From an uncultured Pseudomonadota bacterium (lineage in GTDB: Bacteria; Pseudomonadota; Alphaproteobacteria; Rs-D84): a stretch of 64,000 bases of DNA. The stretch lies in the NCBI GenBank assembly GCA_902793435.1, contig CADBDF010000001.1:69131-133130 (forward strand), in the 5' to 3' direction. Below the pieces are notes generated by a model. It was not told the origin of the DNA and searched no databases. It saw only the letters and a list, made by a program, of their open reading frames with translations. Numbering within the stretch: the first letter of the stretch is position 1; every line of letters begins with the position of its first letter. The position numbers and the translations under genes were made by a program. Below, in pieces: positions 10,802 to 51,851 of the stretch.

Positions 10802-10827
10802 ATTTAAACTCCTTGAATTGTTATGTT

Positions 10828-11000
10828 AAAAAAACCGCTAATAAAAAGCGGTTGGAGTTTAAGAACAATTGGAAAAAATTGCGTGGTTTATTCGTTATAA
10901 ACTTATTCGCCACACTCCAACCTTGGTTATGTTGGAGTTTTTTACGTCTTCTCTTGACGTTTTCCAATGGGTTCTTAAGCCCAATCCTTTTTATAAGGAT
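10828..11000 (-). promoter_or_regulatory. structured 5' leader RNA ending in an intrinsic terminator (copy 1 of a two-copy family; riboswitch/attenuator candidate)
   Basis: On the minus strand, a P1 helix encloses three hairpins. A third ACUCCAACC then overlaps the terminator AACCGC-loop-GCGGUU-U7, followed by the RBS and the OMP ATG. The same architecture, with compensatory changes, occurs at 49575-49740. Confidence 0.5.
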
Positions 11001-11010
11001 GTTTGCATTG

Positions 11011-11065: not shown

Positions 11066-13384
11066 TTATGCTCTTAACTTTGCGTGGCATTTGGTTTCAA
11101 CCGCAGATATTACTTTATTTTGTATTTCAGTTAATTCTGCGTCACCCATATTTTCAGTTGGATAAATCGTGATTGTAAATGCCACAGATTTATTCCCGCC
11201 ACCCATTTCAAATGAATCAAACACCGTCACATCGCCAATACGGCTATCCGCATTGCGCGCCGTCACAATTAAACGTTCCGCCGCAAATTTTGATTCAACA
11301 ACAAATGCAAAATCACGTGTGATTGGTTGAAATTCTGTGATTGGTGTTTTTGCATATTTTGGTGTTTTTGGCAACGCATTTATATCATCAATAATTGCGA
11401 TAACCGTTGGTGCCTTGATATGCAATGCATGGGCTACCGTTGGGTGCAATTCGCCAAATTCAGCAATTTGTTTTTGACCCTGCATAATACGTCCATATTT
11501 ATATGGGTGCGCCCATTTTGGTGCATCACTTTTTTCAACTGTATATTTTTGATTGCCAATCAATTCCAATATATCGTTTTTGACATCAAATACATCTACA
11601 TTACGATTGCGATGCATCCAATGTTTTGGCGATGTCTCCCCAGAACGCACTATGCAAATTTGTGTATGCTGGTTTCCTGGGATATCGCCATCAAATACAG
11701 TTCCTAATTCAAATATATTCATATCTGGAAAACCGCGTTTGATATTTTGCGACAACGCAATCAACTGATTCCCAAGCAGGCAATTACGCATACAATCAAA
11801 ATCAACCGTTATTGGATTAGAAACTTTGATAACAGGTTTTGTGGTTAGCATAGATTCTATTTTCGAATTTCCAAAACCAAACGAAATATTTTCATTTAAT
11901 CCCAAATTCGCCAAACGTTGTTTTAATATCAGGCATGATTTTTCCGCCATGCGTGTCGCACTTTCATTTACAGTTTCAACAACACCTGATAAACCGACCT
12001 TGTCATAACCATAAATACGGATTAAATCAGAAACTATGTTTTCTGGCGCCGTCATATCAACACGCGCGCTGCGTGGTGTGACTGTCCAAATACCGCCTTT
12101 GCCCTCACTGACATTAAATTGCAAAGATTCCAAAATTTCGCGTTGTGTTGCGGGTGCAATATTTATACCGGTTCTTTGCAGGCAAAATGCCGGATTATAT
12201 GCGATTTTATTTGGTGTGACATAATCCATACCTGCGGTCATGACATTTACCAATTTTCCACCACACGCGTCCATAATAATTTGTGCCGCATACGCCAAAG
12301 CAACACCATTAACATTTGGGTCAATTCCGCGTTCATATCTGTATGATGCATCGGTGGATAAACCTAATCTTTTTGCAGTCTTACGAATACCAACCGGTTC
12401 AAAATATGCAGATTCCAAAATTATATTTGTTGTTTCATCGGTTGTCATTGCACGCGCACCACCAACAATCCCGGCCAATGCCAAAATACCTGACAGGTCG
12501 GCAATAACCAAATCTTTATCAGTCAAAACATATTCGTTGCCGAACAAATCACAGAATTTTTCACCGTTTTGTGCAGTACGAACTATGATAGAACCATTGA
12601 CCTTGTCTGCATCAAAACAATGCAAAGGTTGGCCCATGTCATAACATATGTAATTTGTTGCATCGACACATGCGTTTTTAGGATTTATACCAGCAGCAAT
12701 CAATCGATTTGCAATCTTTGGTTTTGATGGCGCGTTTTTAATTCCATGAATTTCCGCCATACGATATGTTTGGCAACGGTCTGACATAATTTGCACAATT
12801 CTGTCGCCAGGCATATCTTTTAAAATCTCTGGTGTTTTTGCAATATAACGTCCAGAGCCACATGCCGATAAATCCAGCGCAATTCCGCGAACTGCCAAAA
12901 AATCCGGACGATTTGGTGTTATACCTGTATCGAAAATAGGACTGGCATTAAATCCAGAAATTGCCGAACCAATTTTTGTGTCTTCTGGTAATTCCATAAT
13001 TCCACTGTGGTCAGGTCCTAAACCTAATTCTTTTTCACTGCACATCATACCGTCACTCAATACACCACGCAGTTTGCCAGATTTAATTTCAACACCACCA
13101 ATTATGCACCCCGGACGCGCCAACGCAGAAATTAACCCAACGCGAACATTTGGCGCACCACAAACAACCTGGCGCGGTGTGTCTGTGCCATCATCGACCA
13201 TTAATACATGTAAATGGTCACTGTTTTCATGTGGTTTTACCGATATAATACGCGCAGCAATCGGTGGAACAGGGGCGATAAAATCTTCGACCTCTAACCC
13301 GGTGCGATTTAATGTTTCAGCAATTTGTTCAGGCGAATTTTCTGTATCCAAATATTCACGCAACCATTCATAAGACCATTTCAT
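11066..13384 (-). CDS. pheT: phenylalanyl-tRNA synthetase beta subunit
   Basis: 772 aa. N-terminal MKWSYEWLREYL, typical of PheT, with a tRNA-binding domain. Lies immediately downstream of pheS. Confidence 0.9.
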   Translation of the reverse strand: MKWSYEWLREYLDTENSPEQIAETLNRTGLEVEDFIAPVPPIAARIISVKPHENSDHLHVLMVDDGTDTPRQVVCGAPNVRVGLISALARPGCIIGGVEIKSGKLRGVLSDGMMCSEKELGLGPDHSGIMELPEDTKIGSAISGFNASPIFDTGITPNRPDFLAVRGIALDLSACGSGRYIAKTPEILKDMPGDRIVQIMSDRCQTYRMAEIHGIKNAPSKPKIANRLIAAGINPKNACVDATNYICYDMGQPLHCFDADKVNGSIIVRTAQNGEKFCDLFGNEYVLTDKDLVIADLSGILALAGIVGGARAMTTDETTNIILESAYFEPVGIRKTAKRLGLSTDASYRYERGIDPNVNGVALAYAAQIIMDACGGKLVNVMTAGMDYVTPNKIAYNPAFCLQRTGINIAPATQREILESLQFNVSEGKGGIWTVTPRSARVDMTAPENIVSDLIRIYGYDKVGLSGVVETVNESATRMAEKSCLILKQRLANLGLNENISFGFGNSKIESMLTTKPVIKVSNPITVDFDCMRNCLLGNQLIALSQNIKRGFPDMNIFELGTVFDGDIPGNQHTQICIVRSGETSPKHWMHRNRNVDVFDVKNDILELIGNQKYTVEKSDAPKWAHPYKYGRIMQGQKQIAEFGELHPTVAHALHIKAPTVIAIIDDINALPKTPKYAKTPITEFQPITRDFAFVVESKFAAERLIVTARNADSRIGDVTVFDSFEMGGGNKSVAFTITIYPTENMGDAELTEIQNKVISAVETKCHAKLRA

Positions 13385-46331: not shown

Positions 46332-46907
46332 TTAGAAATTGTGTGTTATACCAATTCCGTAAAATGCGTAAGAATTATTTTCTTCGGCGGTATTTGCGTT
46401 TGAGAAATGTTGAATAAATAATTCCGTTGCCCATTCTTTGTTGATGTTATAACCAAACATAACTTTGAATTGGAAAACCAACTTTGCGCCCAAGCGCGCG
46501 TTTTCTTTGGCCTGTAATCCAACACCGGCACCGGTTCCCATATAAATTCGTTTATAGCGGAACAGGGCAATATCTTCGGTGACATATCCAATTGGAATTG
46601 TGTAATCTTGCCATTTCCAACCGTTTTTTTCGCCCAACCCAAGTGTCACAGATATATTTAAATTTCTGCGTGCTGGAATACGAAAAAAAGATGTCGGTTG
46701 CGAATATGTGATTGTGCCAATATAAAACGGAACAGGCTTTACAGGTGGTGGTAATAAAATACCGGTATCAAAACCTTGGCCAATACCATAAAACATTTGA
46801 TTTTGATAATTTCCTGTAAATGGGTTGTTGTCAGGTAAAAACATAGATTCAGCCATTGCCATTGTTGGCATCAGTATTGGTAATAAAAATAGTAATTTTT
46901 GTTTCAT
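46332..46907 (-). CDS. PagL-like lipid A deacylase / acyloxyacyl hydrolase family outer-membrane protein
   Basis: Signal peptide MKQKLLFLLPILMPTMAMA, beta-barrel pattern, C-terminal QHFSNANTAEENN...GITHNF with an H-x-S-N motif as in PagL. ATG 46907 is preferred to the ORF-track start at 46943. Confidence 0.5.
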   Translation of the reverse strand: MKQKLLFLLPILMPTMAMAESMFLPDNNPFTGNYQNQMFYGIGQGFDTGILLPPPVKPVPFYIGTITYSQPTSFFRIPARRNLNISVTLGLGEKNGWKWQDYTIPIGYVTEDIALFRYKRIYMGTGAGVGLQAKENARLGAKLVFQFKVMFGYNINKEWATELFIQHFSNANTAEENNSYAFYGIGITHNF

Positions 46908-46991
46908 GGGGTATATTTTATCATATTTTGGAATATAATACAAATTGAATAAAAGTAAAAAAAGACCGAAATAAAAATCGGTCGAATATCA

Positions 46992-47065
46992 TGGTGCCCT
47001 AAGCAAGAATCGGACTTGCGACTCGTCCTTACCAAGGACGTGTTTTACCACTAGACTATTAGGGC
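46992..47065 (-). tRNA. tRNA-Thr (anticodon GGU)
   Basis: The minus strand reads GCCCTAA-TA-GTCT-AGTGGTAA-AACA-C-... with anticodon stem CGTCC/GGACG and loop TTGGTAA. T arm GCAAG-TCCGATT-CTTGC, acceptor TTAGGGC, then A-CCA. There is one C:A mismatch in the D stem, and the T loop has C at position 55. Confidence 0.72.
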
Positions 47066-47160: not shown

Positions 47161-47237
47161 GGCGGAGTAGCTCAGCTGGTTAGAGCAGCGGAATCATAAT
47201 CCGCGTGTCGGGGGTCCGAGTCCCTCCTCCGCTACCA
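47161..47237 (+). tRNA. tRNA with CAU anticodon (elongator Met or Ile2-lysidine)
   Basis: GGCGGAG-TA-GCTC-AGCTGGTTA-GAGC-A-GCGGA-ATCATAA-TCCGC-GTGTC-GGGGG-TCCGAGT-CCCTC-CTCCGCT-A-CCA. G1:U72 wobble, and the T loop has C at position 55. Confidence 0.8.
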
Positions 47238-49187: not shown

Positions 49188-49547
49188 TTATTTATGTTGA
49201 TTTAATATTAAATTACGGATTGGTTTAATGGATTCTTGATTTATAAGTTCCAAATTGTTTTTTGTTTTTTGCGATATGTTCGCGTTAATTTTGTTTGTAG
49301 ATACAATTGAAATAATTGTATTCAGTTGCAATGCAAAATCATCGTTCATATTGCGGAGTTGAAATGGATATGATTTTAAATATTCTGTGATAATATCATC
49401 ATATATTTTATCAAAATCGTGCGCGACAGAGGGTGGAAGTTTGCATCGAAATTCGTCTAATTTTTTATGCATTATTTTTAGTGGTTTTTTATTTTCGGGG
49501 GCTGATACAGAATCGTGATAACAAACTTTTTTTATTGGGCGACGCAT
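49188..49547 (-). CDS. hypothetical protein
   Basis: The ORF-track start is 49559. The second ATG at 49547 has GGAG 6 nt upstream and matches the RBS spacing of the other leader-controlled gene. No motif recognised. Confidence 0.45.
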   Translation of the reverse strand: MRRPIKKVCYHDSVSAPENKKPLKIMHKKLDEFRCKLPPSVAHDFDKIYDDIITEYLKSYPFQLRNMNDDFALQLNTIISIVSTNKINANISQKTKNNLELINQESIKPIRNLILNQHK

Positions 49548-49574
49548 TGAAATCTCCATTATTTTTATAAAAAC

Positions 49575-49740
49575 AAAAAAACCACCAAAAAATAAAAGGT
49601 GGTTGGAGTCTCATAACAATCAGTAAGATTTGTGTGCTTATTCGATATATTCACACACTCCAACCAATGTTGGAGTTTTTACGCCACTCTGGCGCTTACT
49701 GCTGGGTTATGAGGCCCGATTCCAAGAACACCTTGGAACA
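49575..49740 (-). promoter_or_regulatory. structured 5' leader RNA ending in an intrinsic terminator (copy 2 of the two-copy family)
   Basis: On the minus strand: 5' hairpin UUCCAAG/CUUGGAA; GGGC; P1 CUCAUAAC..CAGUAAG / CUUACUG..GUUAUGAG; P2 CGCCA-GAG-UGGCG; ACUCCAAC-AUUG-GUUGGAGU; P4 GUGUGUG...CACACA. A third ACUCCAACC overlaps the terminator AACCACC-loop-GGUGGUU-U7. Confidence 0.5.
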
Positions 49741-49837
49741 CATTTGTATTTTATGTTATGAATTGTCAAAAATCAAGTTTTTGGTTAAAAAATCTTGCAA
49801 ACTGTATTTTTTGATTATATCATATTTGTATGTTTTA

Positions 49838-49960
49838 TGGGTGCGGCGCCGGTGAAGTGACTGACAACCACAGAGGTTCCAAAGCCCAAGGTAAAGTGAT
49901 AAATTCGGGTGGCACCGCGCGTTAAAATCGCGCCCCGAAATTTAACTGAAAAAAAACCGG
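49838..49960 (+). promoter_or_regulatory. T-box leader (tRNA-sensing riboswitch) upstream of aspS
   Basis: AAAUUCGGGUGGCACCGCGCG at 49901-49921 matches the T-box consensus GGGUGGNACCGCG. It folds as an antiterminator: A1 UUCGGG/CCCGAA, 7-nt bulge UGGCACC, A2 GCGCG-UUAAAAU-CGCGC. UGGC is complementary to a GCCA 3' end (G73, as in tRNA-Asp). The candidate specifier is GAC followed by A at 49863-49866. Confidence 0.6.
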
Positions 49961-50002: not shown

Positions 50003-50062
50003 CCCACTTCGCAAATGCTTTGTGGGACAAGTGCCCACGTCGCAAATGCTTTGTGGGACAAG
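50003..50062 (+). repeat. tandem 29-nt repeat (31-bp period) in the aspS leader
   Basis: CCCACtTCGCAAATGCTTTGTGGGACAAG at 50003-50031 and CCCACgTCGCAAATGCTTTGTGGGACAAG at 50034-50062. Each unit can form a CCCAC/GTGGG hairpin. Confidence 0.9.
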
Positions 50063-50078
50063 CAAAAAAGGGACCAAA

Positions 50079-51851
50079 ATGTTATCTTTAAAATCTAAAT
50101 ACAGAACACATACTTGTGGCGAATTAAATATTGCCAATGTGGGTGAAACAGTCACTTTGGCTGGGTGGGTGCATCGCAAACGCGATCATGGATCGTTGTT
50201 GTTTGTGGATTTGCGCGATAATTACGGTATTACACAATGTGTGTTTGATGGTGGGGACGAAAGATTAGAAAAAATTCGCCCTGAATCTGTTGTTCAAATT
50301 ACAGGGACCGTTGTTGCACGTGAAATGGAGGCAATAAATGAAAAAATTCCCACAGGACATATTGAAATCAAGGCTGATAAAGTTAATGTTTTAACAAATG
50401 CCGAAGTATTACCTTTCCAGGTTTTTGGTGATGAAGATACAAGTGAAGAATTGCGTTATAAATATCGTTTCTTGGATTTGCGTCGTGAGAAGTTGCATTA
50501 CAACATCTTGATGCGCAATAAAATGATGAAATGGTTAAGGGACAAAATGTGGGATTTGGGTTTTTCCGAATTTCAAACACCATTATTGACCGCGGATTCT
50601 CCCGAAGGTGCGCGCAGTTTCTTGGTGCCGTCCAGATTACATCATGGTAAATTTTACGCGTTGCCCCAGGCACCACAAATGTTTAAACAGTTATTGCAAG
50701 TATCTGGGTTTGACCGTTATTTCCAAATCGCGCCTTGTTTCAGGGACGAAGATTTGCGCGCAGACAGATTGTTGGAATTTTACCAATTAGATATGGAAAT
50801 GTCTTTTGTTGATGTTGGTGATATTCAAGCCGTTGGCGAGGTTATTATGCCGGAAATGGTGAAAACTTTTGCGCCAGATGCAAATGTTTATCCGTCGATT
50901 CCACATATTTCTTATGATGATGCAATGTTGAAATATGGTTGCGATAAACCTGATTTGCGTAATCCTATTTTAATTAGTGATGTGACGGAAATTTTCCGCG
51001 GGTCTGAATTTGGAATCTTTGCAAATGCGATTGAAAATGGCGCGGTTGTGCGTGCTGTGCCGGCACCAAATAGTGCAGACCGTCCGCGTTCTTGGTTTGA
51101 TAAATTGGGCGAATATGCCGTCAAAGAGTTAGGCTTGGGCGGATTGGGTTATATCGTGTTTGCCGATGAGCCAAAAGGACCTGTTGCAAAAAAATTAGAT
51201 GCAGATCGTATTGCAAAATTGAAAGAGATTGCAGGTGATAATTCTTCGTTGTTCTTTGTTTGTGACAATGTAGATGTGGCGGCAAAGGCGGCGGGTAAAT
51301 TGCGTAATAAATTAGGTGCAGATTTGGGATTGGTCAAAGAACGCGATTTCGCATTTTGCTGGGTTGATAATTTCCCGTTCTTTGAACCAGACGAAGAACG
51401 CGGTGGTGCGCCGGCATTTACGCATAATCCGTTTTCGTATCCTATTGTTGATTCAATCGAAGATTTATCAACACGCGACCCATTTTCTATCAAGGCTGCA
51501 CAATTCGATATGGTGTTGAACGGTATTGAAATTTGTAGTGGTGGGTTGCGCAATTATAACCCAGAAATTATGAAAAAGTGTTTCGAAATTGCCGGCTATC
51601 CAATCGAAGCAGTCGAGAAAAACTTTTCTGGATTATATACTTCGTTCCAATATGGTGCGCCACCACATGGTGGTTGTGCGTTTGGTATTGAACGCGTTGT
51701 TTCCGAAATATTGGGTATCGGTGACAGTTTGCGCGAAATCGTTGCGTTCCCTGCAAATCAACGCGGACAAGATTTGTTGATGGGGTCACCGAATGAGGTT
51801 ACCGAACAACAACTGCGTGATGTACATATTCAAATCCGCAAGAAAATGTAA
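50079..51851 (+). CDS. aspS: aspartyl-tRNA synthetase
   Basis: MLSLKSKYRTHTCGEL...GWVHRKRDHGSLLFVDLRD (OB-fold N-terminus), QSPQ-like LPQAPQMFKQLL, FRDEDLRADR, and class II motif 3 GGCAFGIERV. The ATG at 50079 is preferred over the GTG at 50022. Confidence 0.95.
   Translation: MLSLKSKYRTHTCGELNIANVGETVTLAGWVHRKRDHGSLLFVDLRDNYGITQCVFDGGDERLEKIRPESVVQITGTVVAREMEAINEKIPTGHIEIKADKVNVLTNAEVLPFQVFGDEDTSEELRYKYRFLDLRREKLHYNILMRNKMMKWLRDKMWDLGFSEFQTPLLTADSPEGARSFLVPSRLHHGKFYALPQAPQMFKQLLQVSGFDRYFQIAPCFRDEDLRADRLLEFYQLDMEMSFVDVGDIQAVGEVIMPEMVKTFAPDANVYPSIPHISYDDAMLKYGCDKPDLRNPILISDVTEIFRGSEFGIFANAIENGAVVRAVPAPNSADRPRSWFDKLGEYAVKELGLGGLGYIVFADEPKGPVAKKLDADRIAKLKEIAGDNSSLFFVCDNVDVAAKAAGKLRNKLGADLGLVKERDFAFCWVDNFPFFEPDEERGGAPAFTHNPFSYPIVDSIEDLSTRDPFSIKAAQFDMVLNGIEICSGGLRNYNPEIMKKCFEIAGYPIEAVEKNFSGLYTSFQYGAPPHGGCAFGIERVVSEILGIGDSLREIVAFPANQRGQDLLMGSPNEVTEQQLRDVHIQIRKKM

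Follow-up and report, generated by a model that had tools for sequence, protein, structure and literature searches.

The riboswitch nearest in architecture to the element described here is SAM-I (RF00162), in which a structured domain of the 5' untranslated region (UTR) is organized around a four-way junction, and in terminator riboswitches the closing helix P1 lends its 3' strand also to an antiterminator that excludes the intrinsic terminator. The c-di-GMP-I riboswitches (RF01051) come nearest in copy number and gene set, with many copies, some of them in tandem, before genes for surface proteins and regulators. The leader of the trp operon has three mutually complementary segments followed by the 3' arm of the terminator, the 2:3 pairing being the antiterminator that is prevented by the 1:2 pairing; the c4 RNA of the immI region of phages P1 and P7 (RF01695, RF03163) carries an antisense-like segment between two copies of its complement within one transcript, and T-box leaders are a multi-copy family that governs a decision between terminator and antiterminator. 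In each of these respects the described systems resemble a leader RNA, hereafter called copy B, which is read on the minus strand of a stretch of 64,000 nucleotides (nt), hereafter the window (positions 69,131 to 133,130 of contig CADBDF010000001.1, assembly GCA_902793435.1), from an uncultured α-proteobacterium of the genus Candidatus Enterousia. A sister leader in the same window is called copy A. Enterousia has been placed in the order Rs-D84 and has genomes of less than 1 Mb without a tricarboxylic acid (TCA) cycle or respiration (PMC12306168); almost no recognizable transporters or respiratory metabolism are found in these bacteria (PMC12306168).

We consider, with a probability of about 0.72, that copy B is a member of a lineage-specific, multi-copy family of 5' leaders acting in cis as transcription attenuators, that is, as terminator/antiterminator switches. 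The leader is a new RNA family, of a kind that is already known among cis-acting terminator/antiterminator leaders. Copy B is a real element, far beyond chance, and the claim of the initial annotation that leaders of the same architecture lie at both loci of the window holds. The covariance model R1 was seeded on just the two closest copies of the family, on contigs C3 and C8 of the source genome, because a four-copy MAFFT alignment had misaligned helices P3 and P4, and all other copies were realigned to it. This model retrieves copy B at 82.7 bits (E = 6.5e-22) over its full length, model positions 1-204; copy A scores 54.7 bits, and the two copies align with a mean column identity of 77%. 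Copy B has a folding energy of -63 kcal/mol, compared with -38.8 +/- 3.9 kcal/mol for its dinucleotide shuffles (z = -6.2), and the equivalent value for copy A is z = -6.4.

Six copies were found with R1 in the source genome (898 kb in 15 contigs, 97.8% complete), namely A, B, the two seeds and further ones on contigs C1 and C2. The initial annotation had one structured leader preceding two unrelated genes, which turns out to be an understatement: the covariance-model listing that it recommended returns six different genes in this genome, and congeners have up to at least 28 copies. The six genes encode a 206-residue outer membrane protein (OMP) β-barrel (behind copy A; PF13505 OMP_b-brl, E = 3.2e-8), the 119-residue orphan behind copy B, two paralogous secreted proteins of 410 and 386 residues, a 72-residue protein of the XRE-type helix-turn-helix (HTH) class and an open reading frame (ORF) of 48 residues. 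The genus was surveyed in 53 genomes at least 85% complete, at a threshold of E <= 1e-6 and with no more than 30 candidates of each genome scored, so that all copy numbers are lower bounds; the leader is present in 52 of these genomes, each with from 1 to at least 28 copies, and its length varies from 150 to 240 nt across the family. Other genera of the same taxonomic family have fewer copies than Enterousia. In the other families of the order Rs-D84, the leader was found in one of 14 genomes of family f3 and in the single genome of f5, in none of the three genomes of f2 and in neither of the single genomes of f4 and f6.

Diverged relatives in other Rs-D84 families (L042, L043, L044 and L045) follow the same logic with different segments, for example GCUGGAAGG/CUUCCAGC and GGGUUGGAUG/ACGUCCACCC; they include a minimal form of about 125 nt that lacks the junction core, and all of them precede genes with a signal peptide. 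Strong R1 matches (55-111 bits) also occur on contigs in Bacteroidota bins, namely L129, L179, L200 (CAZJGX01, labelled as a Muribaculaceae metagenome-assembled genome) and L148 (CAVGNU01, labelled as a Bacteroides fragilis bin); these contigs or bins carrying Enterousia leaders are probably mis-binned or mislabelled. Matches to the DNA pattern in other phyla were rejected as chance palindromic inverted repeats, the five that were checked failing to match R1. At gathering thresholds, the only Rfam matches over the window are four tRNAs, and permissive scans with Rfam 15 of positions 49400-49900 (copy B), of copy C and of 16 loci gave sub-threshold noise only. The highest-scoring of these, sRNA-Xcc1 (30.8 bits against a threshold of 53), appeared for copy C alone, was not repeated on 16 other loci and was discarded. 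None of the 4227 Rfam models matches the leader in sequence or structure, and a full-text literature search found, among the papers that it covered, none joining Rs-D84 or Enterousia with a riboswitch, a leader or such an RNA.

Alignment to R1 of 107 copies, about 80 of them newly fetched and all of them paralogues from about 25 related genomes, shows a common nested fold that consists of a 5'-terminal hairpin (P0), the closing helices P1 and P1b, helix P2, a four-way junction with P3, P4 and P5, and then the terminator. The cells that this fold pairs are indeed paired in 95.0% of cases versus 70.7% in shuffles, and changes on both sides are seen in 51 of its 55 pairs; the covariation score is 0.566, compared with 0.169 for shuffles and about 0.06 for slid partners. 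None of 500 shuffles reaches the observed values, and the pairs of the model top the ranking in an unbiased mutual-information scan. Positions 32-36 and 145-149, which form P1b, are paired in 99-100% of the copies with three to four pair types each, while P3 is dispensable, being missing in about 13 copies (mostly before HTH genes) and lengthened in about 13 others. The most conserved unpaired bases are the RAAUAA of the P5 loop (92-98%), the CAC after P5, an A-rich linker before P4, the 5' GGGGUGU and the 3' AACCUCCAACC. G.U cells outnumber A.C cells by 474 to 102 (4.6 to 1), and the folding strand is therefore the one with the sense of the downstream gene.

Three segments of this RNA have alternative partners, and both alternative pairings carry compensatory changes. 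Segments 1 and 2 are the two strands of P4, whereas segment 3 can pair with segment 2 over 9-11 base pairs (bp), taking in the first four bases of the terminator stem. Segment 3 thus has a part in three structures, as the 3' strand of P1 (CUC), as one side of the antiterminator and as the 5' arm of the terminator (AACC). Across the family, segment 2 (GGUUGGAG) is paired with segment 3 in 92-97% of cases, and the duplex formed by the two segments of the same copy has a mean energy of -18.8 kcal/mol versus -16.2 kcal/mol for segments of mismatched copies, with none of 2000 permutations as good. Thirty-six copies have a non-consensus segment 2; in about 28 of them segment 3 clearly fits its own segment 2 better than the consensus segment 3 would, and in 35 the 1:2 duplex (P4) is the weaker of the two, as it also is in copy B (-11.7 kcal/mol, against -16.7 kcal/mol for 2:3). 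Matched variants of segments 2 and 3 include GGUCAGGAGG/CCUCCUGACC, GGCGGGAGG/CCUCCUGCC, GCUGGGGGG/CCCCCAGC and GGCAGGAGUG/AACUCCUGCC, and both copies in the window have GGUUGGAGUG/ACUCCAACC. This covariation indicates that the pairing of segments 2 and 3 is under selection. The leader has, as riboswitches generally do, a 5' UTR fold that is mutually exclusive with the structure of the expression platform, both being documented by compensatory changes, and its overlapping 1:2, 2:3 and 3:4 pairings are those of the trp type.

Further covarying contacts lie outside the nested fold. Positions 127-143 (UA 46, AU 38) belong to a 4-bp helix flanking the 3' strand of P2, positions 26-39 (GC 51, GU 25, AU 18, never A-C) to a local GGG:CCN hairpin, and positions 29-125 (UA 62, CG 20) to a GUG:CAC contact. 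When the antiterminator is forced and the rest of the molecule is left free to fold, the 127-143 and 26-39 hairpins form in 61 and 60 of 99 copies, respectively, and P2 never does. We infer from these folding calculations that the two hairpins would be helices of the open, antiterminated conformer, while the closed one may be held by GUG:CAC as a tertiary clamp.

These results bear on the possibility that the leader is an expression cassette independent of any signal, in which a strong promoter, a stabilizing 5' hairpin and a leaky terminator fix a low level of expression or insulate the gene, the alternative pairings being folding intermediates. Such a cassette would fit with copy numbers that range from 0 to at least 28 among close relatives, as for a module spreading with gene families, with energies that favor the terminator fold in 93% of the copies, and with the fact that no effector could be named. 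Yet a terminator needs neither a four-way junction spanning about 100 nt in which more than 25 unpaired bases hardly vary (for example A116-A119 in the loop of P5, 92-98%, and the CAC that follows P5), nor a segment 3 that tracks the changes in segment 2, nor a separate set of covarying hairpins in the open fold; we thus regard this explanation as unlikely.

The leader has a fixed place between a promoter and a gene. In nearly every one of the 107 copies a -10 box of the extended type (TGnTAtAAT or gaTAAAAT) ends 5-8 nt before the start of the model, with a -35 box of the TTG type about 17 nt upstream, and the 5' hairpin would therefore stand at the very start of the transcript; the promoter-like site of copy B ends about 6 nt upstream of the first hairpin. 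At the other end, the terminator stem is followed in 99 of the 107 copies by 8 nt that include at least six U, and in 93 a co-oriented ORF of 40 residues or more, with a Shine-Dalgarno sequence, begins within the next 300 nt, its start codon lying at a median of 21 nt past the end of the model. The remaining 14 are mostly cut by the ends of their loci, placed upstream in tandem arrays or followed by an ORF without a recognizable Shine-Dalgarno sequence, and no copy among the 107 stands visibly apart from a co-oriented gene. This short distance leaves no room for another promoter, and at copy B a consensus scan of the minus strand detected nothing promoter-like from the terminator to the start codon. 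With the promoter upstream, the terminator in between and no room for a second promoter, the downstream genes would therefore be expressible only via read-through. Termination and read-through at copy B are predicted from its sequence; a terminator scan with a loop limit of 8 nt missed its terminator solely because of the 11-nt loop.

The presence of a promoter and a terminator in each copy, tandem members included, might also be expected of stand-alone small-RNA genes that, like c4 of phage P1, work in trans through base pairing, with gene proximity being secondary. Termination would then yield a stable RNA of about 170 nt that has a hairpin at either end, the matching sequence classes of segments 2 and 3 would be possible specificities, and the location of some copies on predicted prophage DNA would be in keeping with this origin. 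However, none of the copies examined lies visibly apart from a gene, with the median of 21 nt to the start codon and the lack of room for a second promoter mentioned above, and the leader of a prophage contig precedes genes for secreted cargo proteins rather than an immunity region. Moreover, segment 2 lies inside a helix in both states and not in an exposed loop, while its target, segment 3, overlaps the arm of the terminator instead of a ribosome-binding site. No Hfq gene was found in the source genome, so that an Hfq-dependent action in trans is unlikely. Membership of the phage c4 family was rejected because the Rfam model C4 (RF01695) has no match in the genome at E <= 10 and c4-a1b1 (RF03163) gives three noise matches elsewhere in the genome, none of them at the six leaders. 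The leader does resemble c4 in its matched sequence classes and in the copies on prophage DNA, but it has one continuous box inside a helix where c4 has two loop boxes (a' and b'), its target is a terminator arm while that of c4 overlaps the ribosome-binding site, and its pairing would activate the gene while that of c4 represses. It also lacks an icd/ant immunity context, the associated genes being those of surface or secreted proteins, XRE regulators and orphans. On balance, an origin as trans-acting small RNAs appears quite improbable.

Tandem double or triple leaders before one gene were observed in G022:C33 (L113:83-683), G003:C2 (L076:301-688), L071 and L114, each member being equipped with a -10 box and a terminator; the array in L113 consists of three copies and stands before an XRE-type HTH gene. 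Leader copies are found also on predicted viral contigs of IMG/VR, namely L251:7800-14363 (IMGVR_UViG_3300024269_000278), L252, L255 and L256. In L251, the leader at 12019-12200 follows ORFs that, read from their translations alone, resemble phage tail/late-control D, lysis, PLD-type nuclease and methyltransferase proteins, and it precedes two secreted proteins that look like prophage cargo.

For the cis-acting attenuator that we favor, we propose the following sequence of events. The transcript would begin at the leader's own promoter of the sigma-70 type, directly before P0, and the RNA would fold into P1/P1b and P2 and then into the four-way junction P2-P3-P4-P5, within which segment 2 would pair either with segment 1 (P4) or with segment 3 (the antiterminator of 9-11 bp). 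In the closed state P1, P4 and the terminator would form and RNA polymerase would stop about 30 nt before the start codon; in the open state segment 3 would invade P4, the terminator would be blocked and the 119-residue gene would be transcribed. An effector, either a small molecule or a protein, would presumably bind the conserved core of the junction (the P5 loop, the CAC that follows it, the A-rich linker before P4 and the 5' GGGGUGU) and lock the closed, terminating state. This direction is proposed by analogy with OFF riboswitches in which P1 and the antiterminator have the 3' strand of P1 in common, and the reverse direction is possible.

Several considerations weigh against this interpretation. 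The contacts 28-30/124-126, 127-130/140-143 and 25-27/38-40 cannot all coexist with the nested fold. Nearest-neighbor energies favor the closed fold by 12.4 +/- 4.7 kcal/mol for the full leader and by 8.0 +/- 4.5 kcal/mol before the 3' arm of the terminator exists, a gap that is an upper bound and probably overstated, given that the calculation forbids pseudoknots, so that the open state has to give up P1b and P2. In view of this energetic advantage of the closed fold, the open state may need an activating factor or a purely kinetic strand invasion, and the OFF direction of the switch could be wrong. In addition, the copies being non-independent paralogues, the shuffle statistics reported above overstate significance.

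Compared with the described systems, the leader differs from both SAM-I and c-di-GMP-I in having no Rfam match and in coming from a source genome without GGDEF, in the antiterminator, which swaps the partner of the junction helix P4 and does not use a separate downstream helix, and in the promoter and 5' hairpin that every Enterousia copy possesses. In contrast to the trp leader, it has no conserved leader peptide, and its segments 1 and 2 sit in a conserved four-way junction. Unlike T-box leaders, it does not precede genes of tRNA synthetases or amino acid metabolism and has neither Stem I with a specifier nor the T-box sequence; the Rfam T-box model gives nothing at threshold anywhere in the window. 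The coordinates of copy B, its parts and its surroundings are collected in table 1.

Table 1. Coordinates in the window of copy B, its structural parts and associated features.
Feature	Position	Strand	Description
Sister copy A of the leader family	10823..11003	-	Precedes 206-aa OMP β-barrel gene, ATG 10801; 54.7 bits
Regulated gene (119-aa orphan)	49188..49547	-	ATG 49547, stop 49190-49188; without signal peptide; predicted helical
Shine-Dalgarno GGAG	49554..49557	-	17 nt after U7; 6 nt (AUUUCA) before ATG
Whole leader RNA, copy B	49570..49742	-	173 nt; R1 match 82.7 bits, fold z = -6.2
Intrinsic terminator	49575..49604	-	Stem AACCACC/GGUGGUU (49604-49580), 11-nt loop, U7 run 49581-49575; from sequence and fold
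Segment 3	49601..49610	-	ACUCCAACC at 49609-49601; GACUCCAACC over 49601..49610; overlaps terminator 5' arm
Four-way junction core P2-P3-P4-P5	49621..49701	-	P2, P3, P4 and P5 all covary in the family
P5 hairpin	49632-49656	-	Conserved loop GAAUAUAUCGAAUAAG; covaries in the family
Segment 2	49656..49665	-	GGUUGGAGU at 49665-49657; GGUUGGAGUG over 49656..49665; alternative partners segment 1 (P4) or segment 3 (antiterminator)
P4 helix	49657-49676	-	Covaries in the family
Segment 1	49669..49676	-	ACUCCAAC; P4 5' strand; proposed anti-antiterminator
P3 hairpin	49682-49694	-	Covaries in the family
P2 helix	49695-49701 with 49621-49627	-	Strongest covariation of the family, corrected mutual information 1.3-1.8
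5' strands of closing helices P1 and P1b	49706..49717	-	P1 (GGG) and P1b (CUCAUAAC); partners 49606-49608 and 49610-49617
P0, 5'-terminal hairpin	49719..49739	-	GUUCCAAG / loop GUGUU / CUUGGAAU; in the family 8/8 pairs change on both sides, 98% of cells paired
Copy B promoter	49748..49776	-	-35 TTGATT 49776-49771, 17-nt spacer, -10 TAAAAT 49753-49748; consensus scan

The proteins encoded behind the leaders have a hydrophobic N-terminus, similar to a signal peptide or membrane anchor, in 61 of 93 cases. Pfam analysis of 90 of them recovered about 10 XRE-type HTH proteins, seven with Listeria-Bacteroides repeats and two PAP2 proteins, most being without a family; further matches are to cysteine-rich receptor-like domains, DUF285, TbpB_C, a glycosyltransferase, a superinfection-immunity protein and one OMP barrel. 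In another genome (G001, L092:1548-1857), a gene that stands behind a leader is followed by a sub-threshold match to the Rickettsia sRNA47 (RF02800; 36.6 bits versus 60, E = 5e-6), which may be a conserved coding region and not a small RNA.

A gene set of surface proteins and regulators, together with a high copy number, could suggest a riboswitch for one of the second messengers c-di-GMP, c-di-AMP or guanosine tetraphosphate (ppGpp), since c-di-GMP-I riboswitches have a comparable gene set and copy number and the source genome encodes a diadenylate cyclase domain (C2:15465-15818). Nevertheless, the 97.8%-complete genome contains neither a GGDEF nor a RelA/SpoT domain, by which c-di-GMP and ppGpp become unlikely effectors. 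The diadenylate cyclase is present in 37 of the 53 Enterousia genomes, but the 16 without it all carry leaders (3-23 copies, as lower bounds), including genomes with at least 12 (G017), 17 (G080) and 23 (G191) copies, while one genome (G071) shows the reverse, with the cyclase present and no leader. Cyclase and leader thus disagree in their presence across the genus, and no Rfam match to ydaO/kimA was obtained, so that c-di-AMP too is unlikely; a search of 19 genomes belonging to families f2, f3, f4 and f6 of the order did not find the cyclase either. As no Rfam riboswitch model matches the leader either, we hold a second-messenger riboswitch to be very improbable.

Other forms of control were similarly discarded. 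Processive antitermination by a NusG paralogue of the RfaH, LoaP or UpxY type finds no counterpart in the genome, which has a single NusG N-terminal domain; one Rho is encoded. Attenuation by a leader peptide was rejected for want of a conserved ORF: an ATG-initiated frame reading into segment 1 is present in only 58 of the 107 copies and is not preceded by a ribosome-binding site, and the stems of the leader covary as RNA, with no codon pattern.

The 119-residue protein behind copy B belongs to no Pfam family, and a search among 5.8 billion proteins found only its own 90%-identity cluster. Among 151 genomes of the genus, G059 has an identical protein (100%) and G018 a homologue of 41% identity, and G120 gives a weak match. 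The gene in G018 is also behind a leader copy (67.1 bits) and lies between the same neighbors, aspS (about 90% identity) and the C-terminus of a 569-residue gene (74%). Its frame opens with MRRLP, which corresponds to the ATG at 49547, and has no in-frame start upstream. In copy B, the ATG at 49547-49545 follows AUUUCA, and a second in-frame ATG located upstream, at 49559-49557, overlaps the GGAG. The orthologue therefore substantiates the choice of 49547 over 49559 as the true start made in the initial annotation, which had also given correctly the order of U7, spacer, GGAG, 6 nt and ATG, except that the spacer, estimated at about 20 nt, measures 17 nt. A model of the protein built by AlphaFold2 from the single sequence has four helices and is all-helical; with a predicted local distance difference test (pLDDT) score of 48 it is unreliable and too poor for a fold search.

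The locus of copy B is syntenic in the two species, with flanks that are 74-94% identical, and this sequence conservation indicates that it was vertically inherited between them and is no recent insertion. Between the two orthologous leaders 12 pairs have changed on both sides, with 93.8% of the cells still paired, and hence the leader is under purifying selection for structure while the protein is evolving fast. The same observations argue against a role at the level of DNA, for instance as a recombination or mobile-element site framing gene cassettes, which might be entertained because promoter, leader and gene have multiplied as a unit and some copies lie on prophage DNA. Given also that the excess of G.U over A.C implies that only the sense strand folds, and that every copy is preceded by a promoter and followed by a U-run terminator, a Shine-Dalgarno sequence and a start codon, such a role is hardly credible.

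Two other features near copy B may be mentioned. The region 49838-49960, between the promoter of copy B and the divergent aspS (50022-51851, plus strand), is conserved in the syntenic locus of G018. An ORF of 203 residues (46332-46943, minus strand), which ends in ...GIGITHNF and so has an OMP-like C-terminus, lies beside divergent tRNAs (46995-47065, minus strand, and 47161-47234, plus strand); no leader copy was found by R1 before this ORF.

Candidatus Enterousia and the rest of the order Rs-D84 are uncultured bacteria of gut and rumen with genomes of about 0.9 Mb, in which a single RNA module precedes between 1 and at least 28 genes in each genome. The majority of these genes encode secreted, cysteine-rich or repeat-bearing surface proteins, and many others small XRE regulators. 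By gene counts, the leader module would rank among the largest regulatory systems of these genomes. For the fast-evolving orphan behind copy B, the leader is the only clue to its biology and would put it in one control circuit with the surface proteins. As both conformations are defined by covariation, the switch is open to direct study in vitro. Much more tentatively, the leader might constitute a new class of riboswitch whose ligand is a metabolite or signal from the host gut or a partner cell and not one of the usual second messengers, their synthases being absent or failing to track the leader; an obligately dependent bacterium with a reduced genome could thereby switch its variable surface proteome and small XRE regulators on or off, a single RNA sensor governing up to about 3% of its genes. 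The leader is also a starting point in the search for the signal that controls how these bacteria live.

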